Source: an uncultured Gammaproteobacteria bacterium (GTDB taxonomy: Bacteria; Patescibacteriota; Microgenomatia; 2-02-FULL-39-11). From it: a stretch of DNA of 64,000 nt. The translations under genes and the position numbers were made by a program. Shown here in pieces: positions 26,231 through 56,391 of the stretch. Numbering within the stretch: position 1 is the stretch's first letter; every line of letters starts with the position of its first letter. The stretch covers positions 70,567-134,566 of the forward strand of contig CAYGXQ010000001.1 in the NCBI GenBank assembly GCA_964354025.1. The letters are read 5' to 3'. The notes below the pieces were generated by a model. That model was not told where the DNA came from. It worked only from the letters and a program-made list of their open reading frames with translations, and made no database searches.

Positions 26231-26234
26231 TATT

Positions 26235-27125: not shown

Positions 27126-27191
27126 TTCTTGACTAAAATATCGGGAAACGTTAACCTTATTTTAAGGTAAACTTTTATCGGCATTTTTCTT

Positions 27192-30858: not shown

Positions 30859-30913
30859 ACTACATCCAGTTTATGGGATTTCTTATGGGGCTTTATGCGT
30901 GGATGTAGTAAAG

Positions 30914-31228: not shown

Positions 31229-31301
31229 CCTAAATCCATTGTGATGGATTATTTTTTGGGTGTCAAGTGGAAAGTTTTATGTTAAGATAAAAATTATAGA
31301 T

Positions 31302-31757
31302 ATGAAAAAAAAGCTGATCATCTTAATCGGTCTTATTATTTTAATTTTTATAGCAAAAATGACCGGTTTTAACGGGAAATATTTTTTTAAGTCTTTAGAA
31401 TTTTTACAGGATAATAGAAGTTACTCCGATTCCGGTATTTCCGCTTCAGAACCGACAAAGGTAACAGAAATAAACATCACAAAATGGGCAATCTCGCCGG
31501 AGTCATTGGCCAAATGTCTGGCTGAACGGCGTTTTAAGATGTACGGGACTGATACCTGCAGTTCGTGTAAGATGCAGAAAGAATTTTTCGGCGACAGTTT
31601 TCAGCTGATAAATTATGTGAACTGCGAAACGGAAAAAACTTTGTGTGACGCCAAAGGTCTGCATGCTTTTCCCGTTTGGGAAGACGACACCGGTAAGCAA
31701 TATAAAGGAGCGATAGAATTATCAGTTTTGGCCAATTTAACCGGTTGCGACAAATAA
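31302..31757 (+). CDS. membrane-anchored thioredoxin-fold protein with CxxC (CSSC)
   Basis: N-terminal TM, YGTDTCSSCKMQKEFFG, conserved distal Cys; immediately upstream of the ccdA-like gene. Confidence 0.5.
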   Translation: MKKKLIILIGLIILIFIAKMTGFNGKYFFKSLEFLQDNRSYSDSGISASEPTKVTEINITKWAISPESLAKCLAERRFKMYGTDTCSSCKMQKEFFGDSFQLINYVNCETEKTLCDAKGLHAFPVWEDDTGKQYKGAIELSVLANLTGCDK

Positions 31758-31760
31758 ATT

Positions 31761-32582
31761 ATGATTACCTCCGGTAATTTAATCGGCGCTTTTTTGGCAG
31801 GATTGACGTCCTTTTTTGCCCCGTGTCTGCTGCCGCTTTTTCCCTCTTACTTTTCCGCCGTCTCCGGCTTTACTTTTGCCCAGTTGTACGGACTGGATTT
31901 CGGCAAAATCAGGTTACGGGTCTTTGTCTCCAGTCTTTTTTTCTCGGCCGGATTTGCGATCGTTTTCACGGCTTTGGGAGCCACCGGTTCCCTTGTCGGA
32001 CAACTTCTGGAGAAGTACCTGCCGTATCTTTTGAGGCTAAGCGGGATATTTTTGATACTATTGGGTCTTGTACAACTGGGAATAATCAAAATTCCCTCTT
32101 TTGAATTTGACTATGCTTGGAAAATGCAGAAAAAAATGGCCGGTCTCGGGTTCTTAACCTCTTTGGTAACCGGGATTGCCGCCGCGCTGTCTTGGATTCC
32201 CTGTATCGGGCCGCTTTTGTCTCCGATCCTTTTGCTTTCTGCAGAAAGCGAGACGGTGTTTTCCGGCAGTTTACTTTTATTTATTTTTTCCCTGGGACTG
32301 ACGGTACCGTTTTTGGCCGGCGGATTATTTTTCCCGGCCGTAGTCAATCTTCTTCAGGGTCATAGGCAGCTGTTTCACCGGATTTCACAGCTGGCGGGAA
32401 TATTTATTATCATCCTCGGGATATTATTACTCGCAGATAAATATCAGTTATTGATAAAATTATTTGAAGGGATAGTTTTATCTGTCATTGCGAGTCCCGA
32501 TGTCACATCGGGACGCGGCAATCTCGGATGGGATTGCTTCGCTTCGCTCACAATGACATATAAACATAAATTCATTATATAA
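31761..32582 (+). CDS. ccdA: CcdA/DsbD-family transmembrane thiol-disulfide electron transporter
   Basis: Paired Cys motifs FAPCLLPL and WIPCIGPLL in TM helices. The last ~30 codons (VIASPDVTSGRGNLGWDCFASLTMT...) are read through a family-1 repeat and are probably not native. Confidence 0.75.
   Translation: MITSGNLIGAFLAGLTSFFAPCLLPLFPSYFSAVSGFTFAQLYGLDFGKIRLRVFVSSLFFSAGFAIVFTALGATGSLVGQLLEKYLPYLLRLSGIFLILLGLVQLGIIKIPSFEFDYAWKMQKKMAGLGFLTSLVTGIAAALSWIPCIGPLLSPILLLSAESETVFSGSLLLFIFSLGLTVPFLAGGLFFPAVVNLLQGHRQLFHRISQLAGIFIIILGILLLADKYQLLIKLFEGIVLSVIASPDVTSGRGNLGWDCFASLTMTYKHKFII
32483..32557. repeat. family-1 structured repeat with near-perfect 12-bp TIRs
   Basis: tgtcattgcgag ... ctcacaatgaca. 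Central module is the reverse complement of the central module of the 18991 copy. Confidence 0.7.
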
Positions 32583-36079: not shown

Positions 36080-36097
36080 AGTATATCTTGTTCTCTT

Positions 36098-36130
36098 CAC
36101 ACCGGGTGTGTGCAGCACACACCCGGTGTG
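36098..36130. repeat. pair of CACACC-N-GGTGTG palindromes in inverted orientation
   Basis: cacaccGggtgtg (36098-36110) and cacaccCggtgtg (36117-36129); same core as the palindromes flanking the Y1 transposase gene. Confidence 0.7.
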
Positions 36131-36174
36131 GTTTTAAGGCACAATGATATTTTATATGTTATCATATCTATGAT

Positions 36175-36562: not shown

Positions 36563-38371
36563 ATGTTCGGGGATATCAAGGATAAACCGGGAAATCTGGT
36601 TAGCATTCCTCTGACCGAAGTACAGCCGCTGCCGGGCAAAAGTGAGATATAAATTTTCCATCGCCCTCGTCACTCCCACATAACAAAGACGTCTTTCTTC
36701 CTCCAACTCCAAAGTGTCAAGAAGTGAGCGGGAATGGGGGAAAAGACCTTCTTCCATGCCGATGATGAAAACGGTTTTAAACTCCAGACCTTTGGCGGCA
36801 TGAAGAGTCATCAGGGTTAAGGCATCGTTTTTCTCTTGAGGAACAGGATGATCAGGGGTATATTCCTGTTCAACCAGCGCGACATTTTCCAAAAAAAGGG
36901 AAAGGTCGTCAAACTCAGCCGCCACCGAACGGAGCTCCCTGATATTTTCCAGCCGCGAAAATTCCTCTTCGATTTCCGGATCATATAAATCAAGATAGGT
37001 TGACGACTCGAGAGTTTGGTCCAAAATTTCCATAACGGTCAATTTCCGTGATTGTTCTGATTTTTTGAAATCCTGGGCAAAGACTAAAAAGCGCTCATAC
37101 TTTTTCTTGCCGATTTTTTCCGTCCTTTTAAGGGAAACCGAGTCGGCCGGATTAACCAGTAACCGAAGGTATGACAGGACATCCTTGATTTCCTTCCTTT
37201 CATAAAACCGGACGCCGCCAACCAGAAGATAAGGGATGCTTTTGGAAAGAAGCGCTTCTTCGATGACCCGGCTTTGGGCATTGGTCCGGTAAAGGACGAC
37301 GAAATCAGAATAAGCACTTTTCGGATGATAATATCTGTAATCGGAGACTACCCTGATGATGAAGTCCGCCTCATCGTGTTCGTTTCCCGCCTGATAAAGT
37401 TTAATCGCGTTGCCGCTTTTTTTGTCCGTCCAGAGTTTGAGGATCGGGTGCGACTGGTTTTTGGAGATTATCGAGTAAGCGGTATCCAGGATCATCTTGG
37501 TTGAGCGGTAATTTTGTTCAAGGTGGAAAACTTTGGTATCAGGGAAATCTTTCTGGAAATTGACAATATTGCGAAAATCCGCCCCACGCCAGGCGTAAAT
37601 GCTTTGGGAAGCGTCACCGACAACGCAGAGATTGCGCCATTTTTTGGCCAACAGTTTCGTTAATACATATTGGGCACGGTTGGTGTCCTGGTATTCGTCA
37701 ACTAAAATATAGCGGAATTTATTCTGTAAAAAGCCGGCCGTTTCCTTATCCTTTTCCAATAGACGGACGACCATAAAAATGAGATCGTCAAAATCCAGGG
37801 CTTGGTTTTCCCGGAGAATTTTTTGGTATTCAAGATAGATTTTACCGACTTCTTTTTGGAAAGGGCCGTAGGCATACTGCGGATATTCGGTCGAGGAAAT
37901 CAGTTCGTTTTTGGCTGAGGAAATCATAGCCCCAACGATGGTGGGTTTGAATTTGGTCCGGTCAAGATCAAGTTTGCCAACCGCCTCTTTGATAACCTCT
38001 TTTTGGTCCTGGTCGTCGTAAATGAGGAAACCGGGCGGGATGCCTAATTTGCAGCCGTATCGGCGAAGAATTTTAGCACAGATGGCATGGAAAGTACCGC
38101 AGATAGGAAGATTGGTCGCTGGTCGTTGGTCGCTGGTCTTTAGTAAACGGATAATCCTTTCCTTCATCTCCCCGGAGGCTTTATTGGTAAAAGTGACCAT
38201 CAGGAGGTTATCGGGAGAAATGCCTTTTTCAGCGATGAGGTAGGCGACTTTGTAAGTCAAAACCCGGGTTTTCCCCGAGCCGGCTCCGGCTAAAATCAGG
38301 ATTGGTCCGTCAGTCTGTTTGACAGCGGCCGCCTGCGCCGGATTAAGTTGTTTGAGAAGATTATCGCTCAT
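36530..38371 (-). CDS. ATP-dependent DNA helicase, UvrD/PcrA family
   Basis: LAGAGSGKTRVLT (Walker A), DEYQDTN, YRSTK, VGVTRAMENLYL. Confidence 0.9.
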   Translation of the reverse strand: MSDNLLKQLNPAQAAAVKQTDGPILILAGAGSGKTRVLTYKVAYLIAEKGISPDNLLMVTFTNKASGEMKERIIRLLKTSDQRPATNLPICGTFHAICAKILRRYGCKLGIPPGFLIYDDQDQKEVIKEAVGKLDLDRTKFKPTIVGAMISSAKNELISSTEYPQYAYGPFQKEVGKIYLEYQKILRENQALDFDDLIFMVVRLLEKDKETAGFLQNKFRYILVDEYQDTNRAQYVLTKLLAKKWRNLCVVGDASQSIYAWRGADFRNIVNFQKDFPDTKVFHLEQNYRSTKMILDTAYSIISKNQSHPILKLWTDKKSGNAIKLYQAGNEHDEADFIIRVVSDYRYYHPKSAYSDFVVLYRTNAQSRVIEEALLSKSIPYLLVGGVRFYERKEIKDVLSYLRLLVNPADSVSLKRTEKIGKKKYERFLVFAQDFKKSEQSRKLTVMEILDQTLESSTYLDLYDPEIEEEFSRLENIRELRSVAAEFDDLSLFLENVALVEQEYTPDHPVPQEKNDALTLMTLHAAKGLEFKTVFIIGMEEGLFPHSRSLLDTLELEEERRLCYVGVTRAMENLYLTFARQRLYFGQRNANQISRFILDIPEHLVTLAGNDPV

Positions 38372-40222: not shown

Positions 40223-40235
40223 AAATATTGTTCCC

Positions 40236-40448
40236 TTATACGGTTATCATTCTTCTTTCGATCTTTTGAGGAAGAGTATGATATGCACGGTTAAGTATCT
40301 CCTTAGCGTCCATAATCTCGAGAGCGACCGGTTGGCGGAATTTATTGAAATGCACGATGATATTGTCCTTCTTTTCCGCGAAGGCAATGGGATCGTCAGA
40401 TAATTCCATCATAAGTATATCGACGTCTTTACTGTATTTTAATTTCAT
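40236..40448 (-). CDS. DUF2283-like small protein (orphan TA-associated component)
   Basis: MKLKYSKDVDILMMELSD...IVHFNKFRQPVALEIMDAKE matches the DUF2283 pattern (YDKEADALYIKLSD...IVGIEILNA). Confidence 0.5.
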   Translation of the reverse strand: MKLKYSKDVDILMMELSDDPIAFAEKKDNIIVHFNKFRQPVALEIMDAKEILNRAYHTLPQKIERRMITV

Positions 40449-40654
40449 ATCTTCCTTTTAGACAATTTATCAAAATATTGCTTTAAGTTCAATAGAAGGA
40501 TCTTTCGCTTCTTCAGATCGGAAAAAATATATGATTTTATTGCTTAATTGTTCTATTGTTAAATTGTAAATTTTTCGTCTTCCCTCAATCCGTAAATAAT
40601 ATTTAGTCTCGTTAGGTTGTCTTACGTCTGTGTAAGTTATATACTAATACTATT

Positions 40655-40978
40655 GTGAACGTAATTAACAGTGAAACAGATCAAATAATCGAAAGAATAA
40701 TTCAACACTGCCAACCGGAAAAAATTATTCTTTTTGGTTCAGTCGCCAGAAATGAGATTAAAGAGAACTCTGACATCGACCTTTTAATCATCAAGGAAAG
40801 TGATAAAAAGAGGCCGTTCAGAGTAAAAGAAATATTCAAAGCTTTAAGAGGCATGGTGAGAAATTATCCTTTAGATGCAATTGTATATACGCCTGAAGAA
40901 TTGGATAAACGTATTCTGATAGGAGATTACTTTATAAAAAGAATATTGAGTGAGGGAAAGACTGTCTATGGCGACTGA
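40655..40978 (+). CDS. minimal nucleotidyltransferase (MNT) antitoxin-type protein
   Basis: ILFGSVARNEIKENSDIDLLII (GS...DxD). Confidence 0.75.
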   Translation: MNVINSETDQIIERIIQHCQPEKIILFGSVARNEIKENSDIDLLIIKESDKKRPFRVKEIFKALRGMVRNYPLDAIVYTPEELDKRILIGDYFIKRILSEGKTVYGD

Positions 40979-41366
40979 CAAACAAGTTCTTGCCAAGGAG
41001 TGGTTTGATGCGGCGATAAGCGATTACCGGTATGCGGAAATAGGTCTTAAGGAAAATCAGATTTATCCCCAGATTGCCTTTCTGTCTCAACAGGTGGCGG
41101 AGAAACTTCTTAAAGGATTTCTGATACTTCATGACGTTGAACCTCCAAGAATTCATGAATTACCTAAGCTTCTGGATGAATGTGTGAAAATAGATTCTTC
41201 TCTTGATTCTCTTCGTGACGCTTGTGAGTCGTTAACAGGGTTTTATACGGAAACCCGTTATCCACCGGATATCACCGATTATACAAAAGAAGAAATAACG
41301 GAAGCTTTCAATATGGCAAAACTCATCAAAGAGGAAATCGAGTCCATCCAAAACAAACCTCAATAA
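40968..41366 (+). CDS. HEPN-domain protein (toxin partner of the MNT)
   Basis: 4-nt overlap with the MNT gene; conserved TRYPP (R-x4-6-H-like HEPN region) and helical pattern. Confidence 0.65.
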   Translation: MATDKQVLAKEWFDAAISDYRYAEIGLKENQIYPQIAFLSQQVAEKLLKGFLILHDVEPPRIHELPKLLDECVKIDSSLDSLRDACESLTGFYTETRYPPDITDYTKEEITEAFNMAKLIKEEIESIQNKPQ

Positions 41367-41519
41367 TCTTATTTTTTCGCCTCTTCAGACCGGAAATAAT
41401 TCATGAGTTCATGGTTCAATTGTTACATTGTTAAATTGCTAAATTGTTAATTATTCGTCTTCCCTCAATCCTTGAATAGTATTTTTCGAAGACAGATGGC
41501 CGATGGCGGATGACAGATT

Positions 41520-41625
41520 TTTCCGTCCTCTGTATTCTGTCTTCCGATTTCTGTCCTCCATTTTCTGCTTTCAGTCTTCCGTATTCTGTCTTCTGACTTC
41601 CGTCCTCCAACTTCCGTCTTCGATA
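41520..41625. repeat. pyrimidine-rich tandem decamer array (consensus about TTCYGTCYTCC); complement strand GGA-rich
   Basis: About 9-10 imperfect units read directly in the sequence: ttctgtcctcc / attttctgct / ttcagtcttcc / gtattctgtcttc / tgacttccgtcctcc / aacttccgtcttcg. Confidence 0.6.
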
Positions 41626-41711
41626 AGTTTCAGGACTGGGGGAAACCTAAGGAGGTTTGCGCATCAGCGCTAAAGATAGTCAGCGGGGTAGGCTGGTAGA
41701 AATACAACTAT

Positions 41712-41990
41712 TTAACTGAATTGAACACGAAGCGGTGTGTTTAAAACATCAGCCAGGCGTTTAAGAAATGATAAGGTAGGCATTGTTCTGGCGTTTTCCA
41801 CCCGGGAAATAACTGACTGTTTGGTTTTGAGTCGTTTGGCTAGTTCTTTCTGGGTAAAACCGCGTTTTACTCTTGCCATAATCAGAGCACGGGCAATCTC
41901 GTATTCCAGCCGGTTGTCTTCAACGGCTTTACGAATCTCAGGATTTTTTAAAAGTCTTTTTTTATGGGTTTCCCAATCAGTGATGTGCAT
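41712..41990 (-). CDS. higA: XRE-family HTH antitoxin (HigA-like)
   Basis: GFTQKELAKRLKTKQSVISRVEN; lies downstream of the toxin gene on the same strand. Confidence 0.7.
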   Translation of the reverse strand: MHITDWETHKKRLLKNPEIRKAVEDNRLEYEIARALIMARVKRGFTQKELAKRLKTKQSVISRVENARTMPTLSFLKRLADVLNTPLRVQFS

Positions 41991-42030
41991 ATAAAAGATA
42001 ATATCACAATTTTGCTATATTGTCCAGCGG

Positions 42031-42387
42031 TTAAATCAGTGTCCGTGTTTTATATTCAGCTAATCTACTTAAGGCGATTTTAATTTCCTTTATTGGAGTT
42101 TTTTGTTTTTTCTTTTTGAAAGCATGCAACAGTAAAAAAGTGGATTCTTTCACGGTCACGTAGAAAATACGGAGGTTGTCTTCTCCTAATATCCTTATTT
42201 CCCAAAGCGGTGTTCCGGTTAATTTTTTCACGTGGGGTTCCCGAATAGTCAGTCCGAACTCGGTTAACAACTGAAATGTGTTATAAACCTTGGAGATTGC
42301 TTTAGGTGGTAAACTTTCGATAAATTCATAAATTGGTGATGTTCCGGTTAAAGGAGAATAATATTTTATTTTCCAAGTGCCTGTCAT
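42031..42387 (-). CDS. higB: RelE/ParE-superfamily toxin, phage Gp49-like (HigB-type)
   Basis: PLWEIRILGEDNLRIFY...LLLHAFKKKKQKTP matches the Gp49-like toxin family pattern; toxin-first gene order. Confidence 0.65.
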   Translation of the reverse strand: MTGTWKIKYYSPLTGTSPIYEFIESLPPKAISKVYNTFQLLTEFGLTIREPHVKKLTGTPLWEIRILGEDNLRIFYVTVKESTFLLLHAFKKKKQKTPIKEIKIALSRLAEYKTRTLI

Positions 42388-42756
42388 TAATAATAGTATA
42401 TAATATATTTTTTCGCTTCTTCAGAGCGTAAAAAAGTATTTTCTCTGTTTTCGTCCTGCCTTCAGTTTATTGAAGGAATGGACTCATCAGTACCGATTCC
42501 ATCGGTAAAACAGAGAAATTCAGATGGTAAAGGTTATGGTAGGAAGGTAATCCCGAAAAGGGATACAAATTAGAACCTAAGGTTCTAAAACCCCTTCCGG
42601 AAAATACCCAGACACCATAAACCAGCAAGAAAGGCTCATGCAGACAAAGCCGCACAATTTCTCGATATCCAATCGGATACCGATCATGCCTTTCTGCTCC
42701 CTCTGAATTCTCTTGAAGAAAAGATCGATTAGTCAAGGCCGCCAAGCCTTTGACTT

Positions 42757-43221
42757 TTACGGGTACCGGATGGGCTCGCAACCACCCCAGCCAGGGTTGT
42801 ATCTCCAGCCAGGCCCACAGTCGGTTTCAGCTGCACGGCCGAAATGGGCGAGTTCATAGAGCTCATGCCCGTTGGCGTCAATGACGACCAGGCGCCATGA
42901 CCCAGGAGCCGGTGTGTTCGTTCCTTGCTCGAAGACCGTCCGGTACAACTCCGGGTGAGCGAATCTTGCTTCGCGCATGTCATCGACTTCGTCATTGGGA
43001 ACGTACTCCCATTTCACCCGTGATGCAGCGAGTTCGGTATCGTTGCCCTGCACGTAGAACTTTGTTCTGTCCGGGTACCAGGCGCCGTTCACAACGGTGC
43101 CGGTTTTCGCGCCATTCTCGGTCAAGAAAGTGACATTGGATGCCGGCGCGGCGCTCACGTTCACGACGTTCATCAGCAACAAAGCGATCGTCGCGATGTA
43201 AACAATCTTGTAACGGTTCAC
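42757..43221 (-). CDS. small secreted protein, high-GC, probably foreign
   Basis: Signal peptide MNRYKIVYIATIALLLMNVVNVSAAPA; coding GC about 58% against a window background of about 40%. Confidence 0.5.
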   Translation of the reverse strand: MNRYKIVYIATIALLLMNVVNVSAAPASNVTFLTENGAKTGTVVNGAWYPDRTKFYVQGNDTELAASRVKWEYVPNDEVDDMREARFAHPELYRTVFEQGTNTPAPGSWRLVVIDANGHELYELAHFGRAAETDCGPGWRYNPGWGGCEPIRYP

Positions 43222-43578
43222 GGTTTACTCCTTTTTATCTTCTCTTGTACTTGTTTTTCGATAGACACTTCAGCTTGGCGGCGAGACTTGAATATAATAA
43301 GCAAAATTATACCCACGTCTAGCCGTCAAGCCTGATATCATCTTGATCTTTTCTTCATTTTTAAGGTGCGATAAAAATAACCTTTTATCCTGCGCAATTG
43401 CCGGATAAAGATTATTTTTACACGATTTTTCTCTGTAACTCGTGTTTCCTCAGCCCACAAACAAAAAGCGTTTCTGGGCTCAGGAAGTGAGGTAAATTTA
43501 GGGAAGGTTTGGTTGTCAGCGGGGTAGGCTGGCGACATTTCCCTCCTTTGGGTTTACCTCTAGCTTCTCTTGGGTAAT

Positions 43579-45336
43579 TTAGTGGCCTGGGGCCGCTGGG
43601 CGAACCGGCATGGGTTGCGTTGGTCCGGGAACAGTGGGGGTGACGGCGGCGCTCGCCGTGACGCCCGTTGCCTGGATCGTGAAGGGCCCGTACAGATTGT
43701 TTTCTTGCTGGCCCAAAATTTCATGCCTTTCGAGCTCGCCATTATACCAGTTGACCCGGTCGTCTGTATCGACCCGATAGTAGCCAATGCCGGAAAGGTT
43801 CGGATCAACGTTCGAGTAGTAGACCCAATAGTTGCAACCCTGTGACTCACTGGCCACAGTGCTGCATGTGATAGTCTCACCCGGTTTGAGTGAGACTGTG
43901 GTGCCGTTTGGCCACCAGTTGCTAAAAGCCACACCCCGACCAGTCCAGCGGGACCCATCCCAACCAGGGGAAAGATCTTGCCAGAAATCTCCGGGGCCGG
44001 GGACGCGAGGCGGGTTGACATACCCGTCAATCCACCATGAGCCAGTTGTCGGCGCCGTTCCGATGTTAGCAATAATGACCATTGCGTAATTGTTTCTAAT
44101 GGTGCCGGATACCACAACTAGGTCTGGGGCGTAAAGGAAATCGCGTTGTATGACTGGTAGGTACGTTCGGCAGGCGTCCATGCGGACTTGAGCCGCATCC
44201 ATAGCGCTCACGTTTTGTCCGTTTGCCCGGCCGGTGCTCGTGACGGTGTTAGTGAAACTTGCCGTTACGTTGGTCGTGCAGATATAGCCGTTGCTTGCGC
44301 CGACTACTAGCGTCCCGATGGAGCGACTGCAGGTTCCGACCGTGCCCGTCACCGTCACGTTAGACAGATCCAGGTCCCCTGTGTTAGTGACTGCGATAGT
44401 GAAAGTTGCGGATCGGTTGTAGCAGACGGTTTTGTTTTCCGGTTCGATGGTGATGGCGATTGCTGCGGTTTTGATCGTGAACATCGCCGTGACAACCTTG
44501 TTTGCCGTCATCATGACCGTCGTCGGGTTGGCCGTACCCGTGATTGCGCCGGTCCAATTGACGAACGTCGAGGTTATACTCGGCGACGCTGTCAACGTGA
44601 CGACCGTACCAGCCTGGTAGCTGGTCTGGTCCGGATTCTTCGTCACCGTGCCCTGGCCGACTACGTTGGTCGTCAGTTGGTAATTGCAGATGACCGAAAT
44701 CATCTCTTGGACGAGCTGGTCGAGCTCATCTGGCGACGAGGCATTTCCCCAGCTTCCATCGCCAGCCTCGGCGATTTCAGCCAGATAGCCTTCACGGGTC
44801 GAGTCGAGATCCACACCAATGGCGAAGACCCTGAGCCCCGCGAGTTGTGGATCGGCCTGTGCAACCTCGATCGCGGAAACTAGTTGATTGGTTTGAGTAA
44901 TGGTGATTTCCGCATCCGTTACCAACAGCACAACCGGGTCTTCTGCTCCGAGGAGCTGGTTCTTGGCCATAACGAAGGCAGGCACGATCTCTGTGCCGCC
45001 GTTGGCCGTTAGCGCGTTGACCGCGGCGATGACGTCCGTATAGACAGGAGTCAAGGCCAGGTCTACCCGAGGCGTGTCAGCGAAGCTAACCACCCCTTGG
45101 CGGGACCCGGGATTGCTGACTTGCGGTGTTACATGGGCGACCGCACCCTTCAACGCGTCCAGCCGGGTGCCGGAGCCGAAAGCGGTCCCCATCGAGCCCG
45201 ATCGGTCGAGTTGGTACATCAAGTTGACCGTCCGCGAGCAACCCAGCGTCATCGCTTGGTTCGTGATGAAACCAAGCGTCAATAAGGTGGCCAAAAAAAC
45301 CAGGCCCAAAACTTGCGCGAGTCTTCCGCGTTTCAT
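43579..45336 (-). CDS. secreted von Willebrand factor A (VWA) domain protein with C-terminal beta-rich repeats, high-GC
   Basis: Signal peptide; MIDAS DRSGSMG; T...D pattern; Thr/Val/Asn-rich Ig-like repeats; GC about 57%. Confidence 0.65.
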   Translation of the reverse strand: MKRGRLAQVLGLVFLATLLTLGFITNQAMTLGCSRTVNLMYQLDRSGSMGTAFGSGTRLDALKGAVAHVTPQVSNPGSRQGVVSFADTPRVDLALTPVYTDVIAAVNALTANGGTEIVPAFVMAKNQLLGAEDPVVLLVTDAEITITQTNQLVSAIEVAQADPQLAGLRVFAIGVDLDSTREGYLAEIAEAGDGSWGNASSPDELDQLVQEMISVICNYQLTTNVVGQGTVTKNPDQTSYQAGTVVTLTASPSITSTFVNWTGAITGTANPTTVMMTANKVVTAMFTIKTAAIAITIEPENKTVCYNRSATFTIAVTNTGDLDLSNVTVTGTVGTCSRSIGTLVVGASNGYICTTNVTASFTNTVTSTGRANGQNVSAMDAAQVRMDACRTYLPVIQRDFLYAPDLVVVSGTIRNNYAMVIIANIGTAPTTGSWWIDGYVNPPRVPGPGDFWQDLSPGWDGSRWTGRGVAFSNWWPNGTTVSLKPGETITCSTVASESQGCNYWVYYSNVDPNLSGIGYYRVDTDDRVNWYNGELERHEILGQQENNLYGPFTIQATGVTASAAVTPTVPGPTQPMPVRPAAPGH

Positions 45337-45435
45337 GATTTTTCCTCCATTTTGATTTTGTTTTTGTCAGCCTACCCCAGCTGGTGCTGAAGATAAATTG
45401 CTTTACTGCGGATTCAAAAAGAGTAAAATAAAATT

Positions 45436-45639
45436 ATGGTTAAGATTACCTCAAAGAAAATCGAAGTTTTCAGCGATCTGTTTACCGATCTTGCCGCGGG
45501 TTGTTTTGGGACGCTATTGATCTTTCCCGGCGTCATCGGCATAAAAACTCTTCTTGATTTGATACTCCTATTGATCATCAATCTTCCATTTGGTATATTA
45601 TGTTTGTTGATAGCATTAAAATTAAAAGAAAAAATATGA
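45436..45639 (+). CDS. small hydrophobic peptide, hypothetical (a second 35-aa hydrophobic ORF follows at 45638-45745)
   Basis: 67 aa with one or two TM segments; weak call. Confidence 0.25.
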   Translation: MVKITSKKIEVFSDLFTDLAAGCFGTLLIFPGVIGIKTLLDLILLLIINLPFGILCLLIALKLKEKI

Positions 45640-46224
45640 CTCCATCTATTACTTCAACGTCAATCGGTATGGGCATTGCTTTAGGTCTTTTAATTATTGC
45701 CTTTTTACTCTTCTGGAATACCTTCTACAAAAAAACCAGTAAGTAGCAGGTTGATTTTATCTTCAATACCAGCAGGGTAGAACTGACTCAAAAGTCCGCC
45801 TACGCATGAAGCTTCGGCGAGACAAGGGAGGAAAATACCCCTAATAATAAGATTATTACCCCAGTACCAGTCCTGATTTAACCTGAGGACGGTACGGGGT
45901 TGCGACTCCGTTTATTAATGGCGGAGTCTTACCCAAGGAAGCTTGTTAAAGAGCCCCTCGCTTCGCTCGGGGTAAACCCTTCTATTTGACTTAGGCTACC
46001 CTGAACTAAGCGAAGAAAGCCGTTATTAGTTGTCCAAATTTCAGTAATCAGAAGCAAATATCTGAACTTGAAAAAGACAACTTCAAACTTCTTCAGTTTG
46101 CATGCGGATTAATTAACCTATAGTTAAATATCCACAGCCGTTGTATTTATACAACTTTCTATGACAAAATCTTGATCATAAGAGGAGAAAAAGTATCAAA
46201 AATAGGGGATTTTTGACAAAATAC

Positions 46225-46253
46225 TTGACAAACTGTTTAAATTATAGGATAAT
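46225..46253 (+). promoter_or_regulatory. sigma70-like promoter (TTGACA-17-GATAAT) 8 nt upstream of the ATPase-wHTH gene
   Basis: ttgaca 46225-46230, gataat 46248-46253; a second TTGACA at 46213; essentially leaderless start at 46262. Confidence 0.5.
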
Positions 46254-46261
46254 ATCTCAAC

Positions 46262-47539
46262 ATGGATACGAACCAACAGATCCAAAATCAGTACTTCAAT
46301 TTTTATCGGGATAATCTGGAAAAGACAGCCCAAGCGATTCAAAAAGGCAAAGTGTTAATTTTTGTGGGGATGAATTCGATCGGCAAAACTTTGCTGATCA
46401 ACCAGATAACTTCTTCCAGATTCAAGCAGGAATACCTGTCAAATCAAAAAGTACAGACAGTATTTTTGGAATATAAAGACAAGAATCCGCCCACCCCGGC
46501 TCAACTTTATAAATATTGGCTTACCGAAACAGCTAAGATTCGGGGATATAATTTGCCTTTGAATGAAGAATTTAATGACTATTCTTTTTACTATCACCTG
46601 ACGGAAATGACCAAGAATTTAGGGGAAGAGAAACTGGTCTATATTCTCCAAGACACCCAAAAATTGCTTGACCAGGGAGAAGCTTTTTTTCGCAGTCTGA
46701 TCTACCTCCACCGCTTCACTTACGGAAAAGTTTCCTATCTGGTCTTTTCCGAACCGCAAATCCTGGATTGCAAAAACACCTGGGTACAAAGATTTGTGCA
46801 AGACCTTACCAACCATAAATTTATTTTTCTTAAATTATTGGATAAAGCCACGACAATTACTGACATTCAAAGGGAAGAACAGTTCCTGAAAGCTGATCTT
46901 AAACACAGATGGCCTTTGGTGATCAAGTATTCAGGCGGGCTGCATGGAGTAATCGGCGCCCTTTGTTATTTTTTGAAAAAATTTCCGGAAGTGAAAGATA
47001 TCAGACAACTGCGGAAAATTGTCGAAGATGACAAAATGTGTGAGTATTGGTTTAAGGATATTTTTGACAGTCTTCCGCTTGAGTCACTTCGAATTTTAAA
47101 AGAAGTAGTCATGCATAAAGATAACTGGAAAAAATACAACAGGGAGATTTTTGGGGAATACCTGGTCAATTTAGGATTTTTGAAAAATGACGGCACTTTC
47201 CGTCATCCACTGATGCTTTTGTCCCTCAAAAAATACGTGATAGGAGAAAGAAAAAACATCCAGGAACTTACATTGGTTAAAAATGCATTTTTTCTAAACG
47301 GTGCTAAAATAAAATTAACCAAAAGAGAGTTTGCGGTTTTACAGGTTTTGCATAAAAATAAGGGTAAGACGGTGACGACTGACCAGTTAGCCGAAGCTTT
47401 ATGGAAAGACAATCCGGAGGCATTCTCTCTTTGGGCGATCGCGCAGACAGTCCGGCGCTTGAGAAAAAAACTGGCTTTTTATTTTATCCCCCCTCAAACC
47501 ATTAAAAGCATCAGGGGAGAAGGGTATATGATGAGCTAA
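46262..47539 (+). CDS. P-loop ATPase with C-terminal OmpR/PhoB-type winged-helix DNA-binding domain
   Basis: Walker A VGMNSIGKT, Walker B-like VYILQD, C-terminal LTKREFAVLQVLHKNKGKTVTTDQLAEALW...VRRLRKKL...IKSIRGEGY (trans_reg_C pattern). Confidence 0.6.
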   Translation: MDTNQQIQNQYFNFYRDNLEKTAQAIQKGKVLIFVGMNSIGKTLLINQITSSRFKQEYLSNQKVQTVFLEYKDKNPPTPAQLYKYWLTETAKIRGYNLPLNEEFNDYSFYYHLTEMTKNLGEEKLVYILQDTQKLLDQGEAFFRSLIYLHRFTYGKVSYLVFSEPQILDCKNTWVQRFVQDLTNHKFIFLKLLDKATTITDIQREEQFLKADLKHRWPLVIKYSGGLHGVIGALCYFLKKFPEVKDIRQLRKIVEDDKMCEYWFKDIFDSLPLESLRILKEVVMHKDNWKKYNREIFGEYLVNLGFLKNDGTFRHPLMLLSLKKYVIGERKNIQELTLVKNAFFLNGAKIKLTKREFAVLQVLHKNKGKTVTTDQLAEALWKDNPEAFSLWAIAQTVRRLRKKLAFYFIPPQTIKSIRGEGYMMS

Positions 47540-47540
47540 T

Positions 47541-49856
47541 ATGATAGGAGAAACACCAACTGTTTTACCATCTATGTGGGCAAGAATAAGACAAAGACAG
47601 GCAGAAGCAAATGAATTGCAGGGGGATGCCAGAGTAGGAGCGCAAATAACTATTGATAGCTTAACGAGACGTATGCCCAATTTGCCGGAAGAAAAAAAAC
47701 AACTATGTATAGATTATCATCGTGTAGCCGAACCGGTTCTTACTGATTTGCGATGGGCGCCACGTATTACGACGAGAGATGATCTATTCAATACTTTTTT
47801 AAGAAGACGTATCGATGCCTGTCTTGATAATGGGGAAGATCGGGTATATATAGAGATGGCTTTTGGACAACTTAAGTCTTATATAGAACAGACACGCAAT
47901 GAAGTCGTTGATTTCCTTGAGGGATTAGTTCATAAAATGACTGCTACTAAAAATGCGGAAATGGTAGTGATAAATAATGAGGAGGTAAGTTTCAGCGAAA
48001 CCTTTTTAAGAGATTATTTGAGAGATTTTTTTAACAAGTATCCTTTGCAATGGAATGATAGTCAGGTTGATTTAAAGGATAGAATTTCGGCAGTCATGTA
48101 CGCCATCGATGATAATACCAAAGCCAAAGAGGGTGAACGTTATCTCCCGATTATTAAAGTAGGACAAAGGTTTGAGTTTGATATCCCAGAGGAATTCCAA
48201 TATGTTTTGGCCTTAAAAATTCTTGAACAAACTGATTTGACGGATGAAAGAACATCTCCACTATTATATACAAAATATATTAACTGGGATTTCTCGTCAG
48301 AAGCAGTCTTGGCAAAATTGGATGCGGTAAATTGTTTCAAGAATGGGAGATATAAGGATTTCCGTTTTTTATTATCAGCGATAGGAGAAATTATTTATGA
48401 TGATAGGAGTTATAGAGCGACGTTGATCGATTTTCTGACCGGAGTGACAGAAAGGATTGGAGGGAGAGATCCAGTCGAGATGCGCAAAGGATTTGCTTTT
48501 GCCAGAACAATTTTAGATGATTTTGCCAAGTATTACGTTAAGGACAGTAGGGAATCTATAGAATACAGGTTTTTGGAACAGACAAGAGAAGCATTGAACC
48601 AGCGCGAAAGAGAATATTTTTATCCAGACAGAAAACCGGTTGTTCCGGCTGATGTTATGGAGCAAGCGGTTTCGGCTATGGAAAGGAGAGGACCGTCTGC
48701 GATGAATGAAGCCATCTGGTTGGGAATGGTGCCGGAAGGATCAGTGGGAGCGCTTTTCCCGCCGGAGATGAGAGAGCAGATAGAACTAATAATCCAATAC
48801 GCTTTGAAACGGCGGAAAGCGGAAGCAGCAATCATTCCTGGGACTGCTGATGTTTATGGAGCAGATAGTGAGGAAGCGATTTGGATAATGAAACTAAAAC
48901 AGGCTTTTATTGGAGCAATGTTCGCTAAGGATGACGGATATGATATTCATCTACGAAGAGACAATGAGCCGACTTTGCAGGTAACAGAAGGTCCGACTGA
49001 TGCCTCCGAACGGGCGCTATTGATGATTCTGAATGTTATTAACGAAATAGTTAAGATAAAAGCTACAGATAACAGACTAGCTTTAGGTGTTTCTGAAATG
49101 ATGACTGCTGTTTATTATGGTGACGTGGCGAGTAGAAGTCTTTGTTGGGACAAAGAGAGAAAAAGATATGTCTGGGAAAATCCGAAATTTCTCGAACAGT
49201 ATGAGAAAGCAGAACGGGCAATTGCCGGTATTTTTGCCTGGTATCCGCTTTACGCTGGCGAAGTAACTGGATTTCCCGAATCAGGCGCTTTATGGGCTGA
49301 GGCTAACCGTGACTATGGCTATTTGATCTTAGTGGCGAATGATATGGAGGATATCTTGATAAGAGGAAAATATAAGAAACATGAGATGGGTAATGATATC
49401 GGTCAGAAGCCCTCTATTTACCAATGGCTTTTCATGCATCTTGAATTACCGGAAGATGATTCTTTATCTGCTTCCCTGGTTGCTGATCAAGAAATTGTCC
49501 GGAAAGCTTATGATGATATCGGCCGCAAAAGACACGCCGGAGAAAAACTAAACGATGTTGATTATCAGCAAATTGCTCAAGCTTGTGAAGCTCTAACGAA
49601 ATATGCACCAAGAATTATTCCCCAGATGCAAATCATGCTAGAACCGTTTTACACCAGAGCAAGAGAGTCTTTAGCTGAAGCATTTAAAAAATTGCCTTCG
49701 ATGGATAGACGGAATACCACTCAGCAGATAATTTTTGAAAATATGATTGATGGAGTCTGGCAGAAGATCTGCGGATTTTCTGGAAGCGGGGAAGAAGCAG
49801 CTATTGAACAATTATTTCAAGTAAGAGAAAAAGTAAAAGAGGAAGTTCTAGAGTAA
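47541..49856 (+). CDS. large soluble protein of unknown function, translationally coupled to the ATPase-wHTH gene
   Basis: 771 aa uninterrupted ORF starting 1 nt after the upstream TAA; no TM or recognisable motif. Confidence 0.5.
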   Translation: MIGETPTVLPSMWARIRQRQAEANELQGDARVGAQITIDSLTRRMPNLPEEKKQLCIDYHRVAEPVLTDLRWAPRITTRDDLFNTFLRRRIDACLDNGEDRVYIEMAFGQLKSYIEQTRNEVVDFLEGLVHKMTATKNAEMVVINNEEVSFSETFLRDYLRDFFNKYPLQWNDSQVDLKDRISAVMYAIDDNTKAKEGERYLPIIKVGQRFEFDIPEEFQYVLALKILEQTDLTDERTSPLLYTKYINWDFSSEAVLAKLDAVNCFKNGRYKDFRFLLSAIGEIIYDDRSYRATLIDFLTGVTERIGGRDPVEMRKGFAFARTILDDFAKYYVKDSRESIEYRFLEQTREALNQREREYFYPDRKPVVPADVMEQAVSAMERRGPSAMNEAIWLGMVPEGSVGALFPPEMREQIELIIQYALKRRKAEAAIIPGTADVYGADSEEAIWIMKLKQAFIGAMFAKDDGYDIHLRRDNEPTLQVTEGPTDASERALLMILNVINEIVKIKATDNRLALGVSEMMTAVYYGDVASRSLCWDKERKRYVWENPKFLEQYEKAERAIAGIFAWYPLYAGEVTGFPESGALWAEANRDYGYLILVANDMEDILIRGKYKKHEMGNDIGQKPSIYQWLFMHLELPEDDSLSASLVADQEIVRKAYDDIGRKRHAGEKLNDVDYQQIAQACEALTKYAPRIIPQMQIMLEPFYTRARESLAEAFKKLPSMDRRNTTQQIIFENMIDGVWQKICGFSGSGEEAAIEQLFQVREKVKEEVLE

Positions 49857-49970
49857 ATGTTACGATTTTTTCGATCAGATTACTGCCGGGAATTTATGCT
49901 TGAAGTAATATATCATGCTAAAAAGAGCCTGTCAAGCACTATAGGCTTAGTATAATTTACCACTAGATTG

Positions 49971-50026
49971 GAAGATCCCTCAACGAAGTTTATCCTGAGC
50001 GAAGTCGAAGGGTTCGGGATGACAGA
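49971..50026. repeat. family-1 structured repeat, half copy
   Basis: ggaagatccctcaacgaagtttatcctgagcgaagtcgaagggttcgggatgacag; contains the same 22-mer found in frame in tsaD and in the helicase. Confidence 0.65.
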
Positions 50027-50033
50027 TACAATT

Positions 50034-51476
50034 TTACGGAAACAGGAGGAGTTTGGTGCCTAAGAAAAGCAAGGCGGCGGAGGCGGCAAACAGGATGGTA
50101 GTAGGCCCGGTTGAGCCTGATCGGGGAGCGCCGACGGGCGGTGAGGTTGGTTGCGGTTGCAGAGTAGGCGCAATTACAGTCGGTTGAACCGCGGTCGGTT
50201 GAGGAGGGCTGGTGGGGGCCGGTGTAGCTGAAGGAACGGTCGGCGCGGTGGTTGGGATGGTTGTGGGAGACGGAAGGCAAACTGAAGGAGCACAGGTAAC
50301 GGTTATCAGTTCTCCCGATAAGGTGGCCTCGCCCAAGACGCTTTCCCCGCTTTTGAGAACATAAAAAGTTTTCTTGACAGTAACTAATTTCCCGGAAGAA
50401 TCATATGATTGGATAGTGACTTCATGCAAGCCCGGTTCAAGGTTTTTCGGCGGGGTCCAGGACCAGGTACCGTCTTTGGCGGTTTTTATTTTCCCCGTCT
50501 GCGGATCAGATTTAACCGTAATGAGAACCTGACTGCCCGGCCGGGCCACTCCCCGCAGTTTGGGTTTCTTATCCGGAGTATAATCACGGTCGTTTTGGGG
50601 GAAAAGGATATCGATCTCCGCGGGCTTTTCCGGTTTTTTCGTCATGGTGGGAAAAATGGTGACCGCGGTTTTCGCCCCCAAAATATTTTGATTGTTCAGT
50701 TTAGCCAGTTGGTCTTTTTTGGAAAGCAAATTGATAAAATTGTAAGAATTGCCGATGACCATGTCGGGAATTGCCAGGTTTTGTTTGATGGATTTCAGAT
50801 CAATGACGGCTGAAGAAACTCCATCAGAAGAATTTTTCACCGTTATTTGGATAAGATCACTGTCGGATAAATTCGGCCGTGAAAGAAGGTCTCCGGTTCG
50901 TAAATTATTAAAAGGGATAACCCAAAGCCCAAGTTTATCGGTTTTGCCGGACAAGATGGAATTATTGCTCACCGTCAAGTAGACGATAGCACCTTCTTGA
51001 GGTTTGCCGTTTTTATCTACGATGACGCCGTGAGTCGGCGGCAAGTCGAGCGTCGAAGACAATTTCGAAGCGGTTTTTTGGGAAAAAACCGGGCATGCCC
51101 GTTCTTCTTTACAGGAATTTGTCCCGCTGATGACTTTCACCGAATAGTTCGTGTCTTCGCTTAAATTTTTCACTGTTACATAATGAGTATTTCTTGGGCG
51201 CGGCAGATTGTCACTGTCGCCGTCATCCAAAAAGGTTAGCTTTTGCACGTCCGAAGAAACAACAACAGAACCGGTCGTTTCTTGGGCCGTCAGCCAGGAA
51301 ACGGTTAAGGAACTATCAGAGACATTGGTAAATTGGACATCCACCGGTACATTCGACGGATTAGCCATTGAGGTAAACGACTGGGGTCGGCGGTCCAAAT
51401 AAACACCAATGCCTAAGCCTCCGAGGATAAGGAAAAGGGCTATAATTGTCGGAATCTTTTTTTCTTTGCGGTACAT
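50034..51476 (-). CDS. surface protein with FN3-like and Ig-like domains, Pro/Thr linker and C-terminal TM anchor
   Basis: N-terminal TM; PVDVQFTNVSDSSLTVSWLT...TNYSVKV (FN3-like); Ig-like segment; PT-rich stretch; C-terminal ILFAASAALLFLGTKLLLFP. Confidence 0.5.
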   Translation of the reverse strand: MYRKEKKIPTIIALFLILGGLGIGVYLDRRPQSFTSMANPSNVPVDVQFTNVSDSSLTVSWLTAQETTGSVVVSSDVQKLTFLDDGDSDNLPRPRNTHYVTVKNLSEDTNYSVKVISGTNSCKEERACPVFSQKTASKLSSTLDLPPTHGVIVDKNGKPQEGAIVYLTVSNNSILSGKTDKLGLWVIPFNNLRTGDLLSRPNLSDSDLIQITVKNSSDGVSSAVIDLKSIKQNLAIPDMVIGNSYNFINLLSKKDQLAKLNNQNILGAKTAVTIFPTMTKKPEKPAEIDILFPQNDRDYTPDKKPKLRGVARPGSQVLITVKSDPQTGKIKTAKDGTWSWTPPKNLEPGLHEVTIQSYDSSGKLVTVKKTFYVLKSGESVLGEATLSGELITVTCAPSVCLPSPTTIPTTAPTVPSATPAPTSPPQPTAVQPTVIAPTLQPQPTSPPVGAPRSGSTGPTTILFAASAALLFLGTKLLLFP

Positions 51477-54891: not shown

Positions 54892-56238
54892 TTATAACAA
54901 ATAATATGCCGGAATATACTTTATCATGATATTATCTGTCATTTTCTCTTTATAAATATCTCTGGTAACTAAAATCGCACTGTTTAACTTTTCCTGCCGG
55001 CAGAAATATAATAAATTTTTCAGGTCTTCCCGCCTGATCTGTTTCTGGTATTTTACTTCAATCGGGACTAATCCCTGATTTGTCTTCCAAATAAAATCTA
55101 TTTCCTGACCGGCACGTTTCCGCCAGAAATATACTTCTCCGCTTTGTTGGAATAAGTAATTAGCGACAAAACTTTCCGCCAATATACTTTCACTTGGAGC
55201 CCAGCTTGCCTCTTGTATTCCTGAGGCGGATTGCAGCGCCGATAAATTAACTGACGAGGGATAAATTTTTCTTTGCCGGACATTTCTGGTTCGAAATCCC
55301 ATTTTCCAGTTAAACAATTGTTTTACCAGCAAAGTTTTTTCCAACAAATCAATATAGTGCGACAGAGTATTTTTAGCCAGCTGCAAATCAGCAGACAAAT
55401 TTACCAGTTCTATCAGTTGTCCGGGTTTTTCTGTCAGTATCCGGGTCAAATTGACCAGTTCCGCTTCTCTGACCACCCGCAAATATTTGGGAATGTCCTG
55501 CTCCACCACTTTACCAATCACCCAGCTTCTTAAATACTCCTGCTTGTCTTTCCAGGCATCTAATTTTAGAAGATATGGAAATTCGCCCCAGGCTAAATAT
55601 TGTTTAAACAACTGTTCAATTTCCCATTCCGGTCTTTCAAAACTAATATTGGCAAATGGAGCAGTTTTGGTAAATTTTACCCCATGCTGTATACGTAAAA
55701 ACTCTCCAAAACCAAAAGGCCGCATGATAGTTTCTGATATCCTGCCGGCTAAACTTTCCCTGGCCTTGGTTTTAATAAATAGACTGGAAGAACCGCTGAT
55801 AATAAATTTAATTTGCGGATATAAATCGGTGAATTTTTTTAATATCGCGTTCCAATAGTCAACATACTGAATTTCATCGAAGAAAAAATAAAGCTTCCCT
55901 TTAGGATATTTATCTATCCGCATCTGGATAGTTTTTTCTAAAAATTTGGGTTCTTGGGCCAGCACAAACTCTTCGAAGGAAAAATAAAGGATTGTTTGTT
56001 TGTCTATGTCATGATGCAATAAATCAGCAATTACCTGTTTTATTAAGGTAGTTTTTCCTACCCGGCGCATTCCTATAATCGCGGTAATCAGATCTGACTC
56101 AGTAATTTTATTTTTCAGCATTTGATAAATTTCCCGCTTTGGTTTTTTTGCTTCTTCGATTTCCACCCCTTTATCCGCCCACCAGGGATTTTGCTTTATC
56201 AGTTCATTTGCGATTAATTTGTTATCAATATTGATCAT
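54892..56238 (-). CDS. AAA_14-type ATPase with DUF4143-like C-terminal domain
   Basis: NPWW start motif, Walker A GMRRVGKTTL, Walker B LYFFFDEIQYV. Start moved to MINIDNK (cat at 56236-56238). Confidence 0.65.
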   Translation of the reverse strand: MINIDNKLIANELIKQNPWWADKGVEIEEAKKPKREIYQMLKNKITESDLITAIIGMRRVGKTTLIKQVIADLLHHDIDKQTILYFSFEEFVLAQEPKFLEKTIQMRIDKYPKGKLYFFFDEIQYVDYWNAILKKFTDLYPQIKFIISGSSSLFIKTKARESLAGRISETIMRPFGFGEFLRIQHGVKFTKTAPFANISFERPEWEIEQLFKQYLAWGEFPYLLKLDAWKDKQEYLRSWVIGKVVEQDIPKYLRVVREAELVNLTRILTEKPGQLIELVNLSADLQLAKNTLSHYIDLLEKTLLVKQLFNWKMGFRTRNVRQRKIYPSSVNLSALQSASGIQEASWAPSESILAESFVANYLFQQSGEVYFWRKRAGQEIDFIWKTNQGLVPIEVKYQKQIRREDLKNLLYFCRQEKLNSAILVTRDIYKEKMTDNIMIKYIPAYYLL

Positions 56239-56391
56239 AAATGTCACATTAACGATCAATATCGTATCATGATTAACCGTAAATGTCAAATTGAGGATAA
56301 AGAAAGAATTATTCAGTTTTTTATTAATGGATGCGGTCTTTATTGATTTGGGTTGTGATGACAAGATTTAAAGCTTGGGAATTTGTTGGTA

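Follow-up and report, generated by a model that had tools for sequence, protein, structure and literature searches.

It is thought that bacteria of the candidate phyla radiation (CPR) need to attach to other cells, and the gain of surface proteins by their small genomes is little understood. The locus described here contains a gene for a putative surface protein with a VWA domain and a metal ion-dependent adhesion site (MIDAS), a second GC-rich gene and four copies of an 18-mer repeat, all within an accessory island on a stretch of 64,000 nucleotides (contig CAYGXQ010000001.1 of assembly GCA_964354025.1, positions 70,567–134,566 of the forward strand). This stretch is referred to below as the window, and coordinates are counted from its first nucleotide.

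For the locus as a whole, the closest described systems are genomic and defence islands at integration hot spots, in which variable cargo, including toxin-antitoxin modules and STAND NTPases, lies between conserved flanks. For its main protein, they are the VWA/MIDAS surface adhesins, comprising sortase-target and pilus-tip proteins as well as InlB B-repeat/DUF11 proteins of Chloroflexota and Actinomycetota. For the repeat, comparison can be made with repetitive extragenic palindromic (REP) sequences, bacterial interspersed mosaic elements (BIMEs) and the REPINs of RAYT Y1 transposases, which are short imperfect intergenic palindromes occurring in both orientations and mostly at the 3′ ends of operons. 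It can also be made with the pdif sites of XerC/D on Acinetobacter plasmids and the attC sites of integrons, in which single-operon modules, including higBA-type pairs, are parted by short palindromes with an asymmetric centre.

Compared with these systems, the window contains an ordinary strain-specific accessory island of a known kind, with some unusual details. Like the described islands, it carries cargo that varies between conserved flanks, and part of that cargo has an atypical composition; unlike them, it has only two compositionally foreign open reading frames (ORFs), the limits of which are precise to the ORF. The locus is probably the product of a genuine horizontal acquisition, namely a 9.8-kb accessory island in a Candidatus Gottesmanbacteria strain with two foreign GC-rich ORFs.

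Two GC-rich genes in AT-rich surroundings

The features that carry this interpretation are the following.

40223–50033 (9.8 kb): strain-specific accessory island, between the LCP gene (which ends at 40222) and the fn3/Big_13 gene
50034–51476, minus strand: fn3/Big_13 gene, right neighbour of the island
42757–43221, minus strand: gene of a 154-aa putative secreted near-orphan with a GTG start (cluster and HMMER searches)
43222–43514 (293 nt): AT-rich spacer between the two GC-rich ORFs, 38% GC, with promoter-like hexamers for the 154-aa gene
43579–45336, minus strand: gene of the 585-aa VWA/MIDAS protein, putatively secreted or membrane-anchored (Pfam, MIDAS residues, GC by codon position)

The 154-aa ORF has a GC content of 57.4% and a GC content at third codon positions (GC3) of 0.69, and the VWA ORF has values of 57.6% and 0.67, compared with means of 42.6% (standard deviation, sd, 4.3) and 0.452 (sd 0.063) for the 48 other ORFs of the window. 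The first-pass annotation had set a GC content of about 57% against a background of about 40%; the former figure stands for the two ORFs, whereas the background is 43.2%, with the interval 42740–45340 as a whole at 55.2%. Tetranucleotide and codon usage, which it had proposed for comparison, are both atypical. The segment 43501–45000 has the most deviant tetranucleotide profile among 1.5-kb windows of the 64 kb (z=4.8), and the synonymous-codon likelihood under a host model gives z=−3.9 for the VWA gene and z=−2.3 for the 154-aa gene. The encoded proteins also prefer arginine, with an R/(K+R) of 0.71–0.74 versus 0.25–0.32 in host proteins. Since codon choice and amino-acid usage both deviate, the anomaly exceeds what protein composition alone would produce. 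The island without these two ORFs has 38.8% GC, and the atypical composition is limited to them.

A native origin of the two genes, with their high GC produced by amino-acid composition or by expression-linked codon bias, is improbable. The GC content at second codon positions is likewise raised (0.46–0.50), reflecting a surface protein rich in Gly, Ala, Thr and Pro, and the best homologue of the VWA protein may come from a CPR genome (see below). However, GC3 lies 3.5 sd above the host mean, a level that the highly expressed groEL and dnaK genes do not reach (0.51–0.54 only), the R/K ratio is that of proteins from GC-rich genomes, and both genes are missing from the corresponding loci of five sister genomes.

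The GC content drops to host-like values or lower within about 50 nt of the ends of either GC-rich ORF, and the gap upstream of the VWA gene (45337–45435) has 34% GC. There is no single contiguous high-GC segment, and the junctions are precise to the ORF. Shine-Dalgarno sequences are located in the AT-rich flanks, with GGAGG 8 nt ahead of the VWA start codon (ATG) and AGGAG 7 nt ahead of that of the 154-aa gene (GTG). A promoter scan found promoter-like hexamers upstream of the 154-aa gene and no good sigma-70-like promoter upstream of the VWA gene. Third-codon positions are expected to decay at least as fast as spacers, and therefore amelioration cannot explain a GC3 of 0.68 beside spacers of 38% GC. 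The composition of the spacer, together with the ORF-sharp GC limits, also argues that the two genes were not imported as a single donor block, and we infer that the GC-rich ORFs and their flanks differ in origin. Both ORFs were probably acquired by horizontal transfer, with one GC-rich donor or several as the source, and have ameliorated little; the AT-rich DNA around each acquired ORF now provides its Shine-Dalgarno sequence. The ORF-precise limits hint at a capture mechanism finer than donor-block insertion.

A strain-specific island between conserved genes

The adjacent LCP protein has homologues named Candidatus Gottesmanbacteria or Patescibacteria, the closest of which is only about 60% identical, and the remainder of the window encodes typical CPR housekeeping proteins (GroEL, GrpE-DnaK-DnaJ, MurJ, FemAB, PilN/PilO, MetRS and TsaD). 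Judged by these proteins, the host is a Candidatus Gottesmanbacteria (CPR/Patescibacteria) genome. The five sister Gottesmanbacteria loci with which the window was compared (L015, L017, L018, L040 and L041) have in common the gene order UvrD-TIM-LCP-x-fn3/Big_13-PilO-PilN-S20-MurJ-GH39-HrcA-GrpE-DnaK, where x denotes a site with none to four unrelated genes in the sisters, and the flanking orthologues of the window and the sisters share 44–68% amino-acid identity. Site x is empty in L018 and L040, a single small gene occupies it in both L015 and L017, and L041 has four genes there, with a cargo that includes a PhdYeFM antitoxin and a 761-aa STAND NTPase.

In the window, the island between the LCP and fn3/Big_13 genes contains a DUF2283 gene, an MNT-HEPN module, higBA, the 154-aa gene, the VWA gene, two small hydrophobic ORFs, a 425-aa P-loop/winged helix-turn-helix (wHTH) protein gene and the gene of a 771-aa protein. 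The ten island proteins all gave no tblastn match in the five sister loci, whereas all flanking genes were matched, and the island has no DNA similarity to these loci. On the gene content of the compared loci, the interval between the convergent LCP and fn3/Big_13 genes is a recombination hot spot. The island itself is probably a mosaic of independent modules, in which the two GC-rich ORFs are modules within a foreign unit of the whole 9.8 kb.

Continuity of the contig

Logan assemblies, which are built one run at a time, were compared with the window for runs ERR3804373 and ERR3804374. Two contigs of ERR3804373 (36434–42411 and 42391–45978) and one contig of ERR3804374 (38841–44053) are 100% identical to the window. 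A further contig of ERR3804374 (L039, 1954 nt) encodes the N-terminal 437 aa of the VWA protein and the 67-aa gene; placed by gene positions rather than by alignment, it would cover approximately 44025–45978. Both GC transitions are spanned by aligned contigs, and the upstream one also agrees with the gene content of L039. Horizontal acquisition and assembly chimerism had both been considered possible at the outset; the former is supported, and the latter is rejected by the per-run assemblies of the two runs. The joining of a GC-rich fragment of another organism to a CPR contig has very little probability left: although the GC change is sharp and neither GC-rich gene has a homologue in the sister loci, the independent assemblies of the two runs agree 100% at both transitions, four joins would be required because each GC-rich ORF is flanked left and right by AT-rich DNA, the stretch that parts the two ORFs included, and the AT-rich flanks place Shine-Dalgarno sequences correctly for both start codons.

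A cluster of stable hairpins (45790–46060, z of about −3.5 on both strands) is located upstream of the gene for the 425-aa regulator. The ERR3804373 contig L001 ends within it, at 45978, and the placement of L039 puts its end there too. The shared contig end suggests a graph branch or a variant.

The two GC-rich proteins and their possible source

The assignment of the 585-aa product as a VWA/MIDAS protein in the first-pass annotation is borne out by Pfam matches above cut-off to VWA_2 (50.5 bits, cut-off 27) and VWA (33.6 bits, cut-off 23.8), and by a complete MIDAS motif (D44-R-S-G-S48, T of GGTEI and D of VTDAE). The protein also contains an InlB B-repeat and a weak DUF11/DUF7507 match in Pfam. 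Like the VWA/MIDAS surface adhesins, it has a VWA domain with the full DxSxS-T-D motif that is followed by beta-rich repeats, and a putative N-terminal export signal. Unlike them, it has no sortase motif and gives no match by sequence to a solved structure in the PDB, its C-terminal region of about 190 aa is unassigned, and its score with the NCBIfam marine sortase-target model is 25 bits, far below the cut-off of 552. The proposal that both GC-rich genes encode signal-peptide proteins agrees with the hydrophobic N-termini of the two products (MKRGRLAQVLGLVFLATLLTLGF... and MNRYKIVYIATIALLLMNVVNVSA/AP), as read by eye only.

The 154-aa protein has a signal-like N-terminus (VSA/AP, by eye) and matches only itself among 5.8 billion clusters, and an exhaustive HMMER search found four weak partial matches among 1.84 billion representatives. 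It matches no family in Pfam, NCBIfam or PADLOC, and its similarity to the VWA protein is not significant. A single-sequence AF2 model had a predicted local distance difference test score (pLDDT) of 50 and is unreliable and too poor for a fold search. From the domains only, the two products are likely a secreted or anchored metal-dependent (MIDAS) adhesin and a small secreted partner.

The best homologue of the VWA protein in the same set of clusters, P0001, is 53% identical over residues 33–329, which cover only the VWA and B-repeat region, has the same VWA-B-repeat-DUF11 order and keeps the MIDAS motif. Its K/N/T-rich sequence suggests that P0001 is not the donor. The search for a donor by homology, as originally proposed, thus ends with a best homologue that does not name one; the remaining homologues match repeat domains only, and this includes all of the named matches. 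With regard to a plasmid or phage origin, no match was found for the VWA protein in plasmids (tblastn), for VWA peptides in IMG/VR, or for 40223–46261, the left 6 kb of the island with both GC-rich genes, in phages (blastn).

Several results weigh against a horizontal acquisition. The homologue searches with the VWA protein did not identify a donor lineage, the K/N/T-rich P0001 may itself come from a low-GC CPR genome, and the borders of the island, unlike those of genomic and defence islands, showed no integrase, transposase, tRNA gene or flanking direct repeats in searches of the window. The acquisition of a foreign island with two GC-rich ORFs nevertheless remains the probable reading. The locus would then be a clean, assembly-verified case of a Gottesmanbacteria strain that obtained two genes from GC-rich donors, one MIDAS adhesin-like and the other for a secreted orphan; the hot spot concerned bears toxin-antitoxin and STAND cargo in another sister genome. 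Searches of the literature on the sequencing run and on horizontal gene transfer in Gottesmanbacteria found nothing usable. The value of this otherwise ordinary island lies in two testable side leads, namely a family of palindromic repeats that is local and, within an operon, a candidate hammerhead ribozyme.

An 18-mer repeat in the gaps between operons

The repeat has four copies in the island, designated c1 to c4.

41679–41696, plus strand: c1, GTCAGCGGGGTAGGCTGG, exact; 15 nt beyond the higA stop codon
43515–43532, plus strand: c2, GTCAGCGGGGTAGGCTGG, exact; 46 nt beyond the VWA stop codon
45366–45384, minus strand: c3, CCAGCTGGGGTAGGCTGAC on the minus strand, imperfect; 29 nt upstream of the VWA ATG
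45769–45787, plus strand: c4, CCAGCAGGGTAGAACTGAC, degenerate; 22 nt beyond the stop codon of the 36-aa ORF

Of the copies reported in the first-pass annotation, the two exact ones are confirmed; the third is inverted as reported but imperfect, and lies one base from the given position (45365–45383). This copy, located in the divergent gap between the VWA and 67-aa genes, agrees with the 18-mer at 15 of 16 aligned positions with one indel, and has the exact 11-mer CAGCCTACCCC in common with it. The degenerate copy c4 has a local alignment score of 33 versus a shuffle mean of 16.2 (sd 2.5), and c3 and c4 form part of 37-nt inverted repeats (45361–45397 and 45756–45792). The expected count of the 18-mer with up to three mismatches is 0.01, and about 0.06 exact pairs of any 18-mer are expected in 64 kb. 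A loose pattern that accepts all variants matched exactly four sites in the window versus 0.035 expected from shuffles, and had no match in the other 60 kb of the window or in the five sister loci.

The inverted copies had been proposed to bound the GC-rich segment together with higBA, and this proposal is not upheld. Relative to the sister loci, the insertion is 9.8 kb (40223–50033) and not 3.7 kb, the four copies occur in successive inter-operon gaps, copies are absent from both ends of the 154-aa ORF, and 293 nt of DNA with 38% GC part the two GC-rich ORFs. All four copies are intergenic and, in the 64 kb examined, fall inside an interval of 4.1 kb. Between 41.4 and 46.3 kb there are five inter-operon gaps, four of which contain the motif, one copy each; the motif therefore does not bound GC-rich DNA.

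The motif consists of a perfect 4-bp stem, CAGC/GCTG, around the asymmetric centre GGGGTAG. Read on the strand GTCAG...GCTGG, c1 and c2 hold GGGGTAG and c3 and c4 hold CTACCC, such that the two subtypes look alike with only the centre flipped. Copy c2 forms the apex of an imperfect palindrome of about 72 nt (43489–43560), with fold z-scores of −3.8 on the minus strand and −3.6 on the plus strand. Copy c1 has a left flank similar to the arms of the c2 palindrome but lacks a right arm; the contexts of c1 and c3 fold no better than shuffles (z=−1.8 and −0.1). No target-site duplications were seen by eye around the c2/c3 and c3/c4 units, and Rfam identified no known RNA or ribozyme at the copies at E-values up to 10.

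In public collections, the exact 18-mer has nine single matches in GTDB species genomes, 18 in JGI metagenomes and one in IMG/VR, compared with a chance expectation of about 17 in 596 Gb. These matches lie mostly on GC-rich contigs of unrelated organisms, and none has flanks like those of c1 and c2. The closest-looking one (L008) is located inside a membrane-protein ORF.

It is possible, and we favour this tentatively, that the motif has a role at the DNA level; it would be a small hairpin repeat of the REP type or of the type of miniature inverted-repeat transposable elements, or else a recombination junction left by assembly of the island module by module. The 18-mer is the conserved core of a palindromic intergenic repeat that has four copies, all in the island, whereas the short repeat families Y, Z and D19 are spread window-wide. 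With regard to transcription, the copies lie in either orientation, which speaks against one sequence-specific role as RNA. Like REP, BIME and REPIN sequences, the motif is a short imperfect intergenic palindrome found in both orientations and mostly at operon 3′ ends; it contains GTAG, and the window has a RAYT-like gene. Unlike in those systems, the GTAG is in the loop and not at the 5′ foot of the stem, and the copies are confined to 4.1 kb. Three observations count against a DNA-level role: the copies number only four and have no homologues elsewhere in the collections searched, the motif is missing at the ends of the GC-rich 154-aa ORF, and the sole Y1/RAYT-like gene in the window (12291–12968) is flanked by a different palindrome, ACACACCWGGTGTGT.

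That the motif is an RNA hairpin at mRNA ends, acting as a terminator or stabilizer, or else an operator bound by HigA or by the wHTH-STAND regulator of the island, is unlikely. Such roles would suit the positions of c1, c2 and c4 (15–46 nt beyond stop codons) and of c3, which precedes the −35-like hexamer of the 67-aa gene by about 20 nt and the start of the VWA gene, a gene that lacks a good sigma-70-like promoter, by 29 nt; c2 is, in addition, within a stable long hairpin. However, no U-tract follows any copy, and a consensus terminator scan called no terminator at any of them, by which a terminator role is rejected. On the transcripts, the conserved loop would be rich in C for c1 and c2 but rich in G for c3 and c4, the surroundings of c1 and c3 are no better folded than shuffled sequence, and c1 cannot be an operator since it lies between convergent operons.

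Slightly less probable still is that the 19-bp palindromes are sites of a site-specific recombinase, in a pdif, shufflon/inverton or integron-like array that moves or inverts single-operon modules. Each site has a pair of short inverted arms that enclose an asymmetric core of 7 nt. Copies c2, c3 and c4 alternate in orientation, as in pdif and attC arrays, with c2 and c3 tightly bracketing the VWA gene and c3 and c4 the small-peptide operon, a toxin-antitoxin module adjoins c1 as in pdif arrays, and c3 and c4 resemble c1 and c2 with only the core flipped. Against this, no recombinase gene was found in the 64 kb, the arms are only 5–6 bp, and c1 and c2 are direct and do not alternate. No attC R″/R′ cores (RYYYAAC...GTTRRRY) were seen by eye in the c2 palindrome. 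L001 is unbroken through c2–c4 and L039 through c3–c4, in a single orientation, the two per-run assemblies contain no contig with an alternative orientation, and the motif is no commoner than expected by chance in 596 Gb of genomes or in JGI metagenomes. The sites also differ from pdif and attC in length (19 bp versus 28 bp or 57–141 bp), in the lack of Xer-like or RYYYAAC/GTTRRRY motifs and of an integrase, and in the mixed orientations of the genes. The probability that remains after a DNA-level role, an RNA or operator role and a recombinase site goes to a functionless relic.

By analogy with pdif and attC, the palindromes with their 7-nt core might even be the exchange sites of a CPR cassette system without a linked integrase that captures single ORFs, although this is decidedly improbable. 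Such a system would explain the ORF-precise GC mosaic, the layout of one site per gap and the core-flipped variants. Surface adhesins from GC-rich neighbours or hosts would be dropped into AT-rich expression slots, and a hammerhead ribozyme would part the transcripts of adjacent cassettes.

Other modules of the island and a candidate hammerhead ribozyme

The remaining features of the island are listed in order of position.

40498–40604 and 41370–41484, plus strand: direct repeats of about 110 nt, about 80% identical, flanking the MNT-HEPN module
41712–41990, minus strand: higA, HTH_3 antitoxin, low GC (Pfam HTH_3, 57.6 bits)
42031–42387, minus strand: higB, Gp49 family, low GC (Pfam Gp49, 76 bits)
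42443–42515, minus strand: candidate type III hammerhead (Rfam RF00008), in the fifth inter-operon gap, which separates higB from the 154-aa gene, and on the strand that codes for both
45436–45639, plus strand: 67-aa small hydrophobic ORF, between c3 and c4
45636–45746, plus strand: 36-aa small hydrophobic ORF, overlapping the 67-aa ORF, between c3 and c4 (by eye)
46262–49856, plus strand: P-loop/STAND-like NTPase of 425 aa that ends in an OmpR-type winged helix, and after it the 771-aa protein; right part of the island

In the higBA module, the toxin gene comes first and the antitoxin gene second. The 771-aa protein has no family match. Between the MNT-HEPN module and c1, approximately 15 heptamer repeats (TTCYGTC, with periods of 7 and 14) extend over 41483–41631, and an inverted partner of this array at 41483–41517 makes a long hairpin possible. 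A third, partial copy of the 110-nt repeat, located upstream of higB (42406–42461), overlaps with the hammerhead at the 3′ end of the latter (...GACGAA...).

The match to RF00008 is full-length (model positions 1–54) and scores 29 bits, below the gathering score of 48.5, with an E-value of 0.004–0.04. The CUGAUGA and GAAA elements of the core are intact, and the three canonical stems have no non-canonical pairs flagged. Cleavage is predicted after U42508, where the triplet UUU fits NUH. The minimum-free-energy fold gives the same three-way junction (z=−5.9). Like the type III hammerheads of RF00008, the candidate has a complete catalytic core, three helices with stem III open and an NUH-fitting triplet; unlike them, it is below the gathering threshold, its stem II is extended by 21 nt and its triplet is UUU. 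The element is thus a candidate type III hammerhead, proposed from one sequence without covariation. If active, it would sever the 154-aa mRNA from higBA in a read-through transcript. No hammerhead was found in the sister loci, a viral scan with the hammerhead core gave no match, and the literature on hammerhead ribozymes in CPR yielded nothing usable.

Other repeats and insertions in the window

The Y1 gene at 12291–12968 encodes a 225-aa IS200/RAYT-like transposase and has 34.8% GC; it scores 52.7 bits in NCBIfam, below the cut-off of 80. Its region (12233–13008) has 36-nt inverted repeats that contain the palindrome ACACACCWGGTGTGT, of which two weaker copies are present at 36097–36131. Short palindromic repeats that are intergenic and dispersed form at least three families (CCTGAGCGAAGTCGAAGGG, AGCAGACTTTAGTCTGC and TGTCATTGCGAGCAAAGCGAAGCAATC). 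The CCTGAGCGAAGTCGAAGGG family has five copies (3100, 18137, 24245, 49994 and 56412), one of which is at the right border of the island next to GGGATGACAGA, another short palindromic repeat family of this genome. The AGCAGACTTTAGTCTGC family has four copies (20906, 33514, 38406 and 56394), and the TGTCATTGCGAGCAAAGCGAAGCAATC family is represented at 18991–19035 and 32514–32558.

Between MurJ and GH39, an AAA_14/DUF4143 ATPase gene (54892–56364, minus strand; PADLOC PDC-S01, 194 bits) is present in none of the five sister loci and is a second strain-specific insertion. Where the sisters have NIF3 after the UvrD/PD-(D/E)XK helicase, the window has about 7.5 kb of mostly no-family genes (25091–32582), including two paralogues (379 and 439 aa) and a gene for a 784-aa protein with a GC content at second codon positions of 0.59, within which lies a 186-nt tandem duplication (29657–30028). 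Sub-threshold matches to Rfam n00280 are located inside UvrD-type helicase genes at 36630–36724 and 24058–24153, and also in L015, L017 and L041; they most likely represent conserved coding sequence and not a small RNA.

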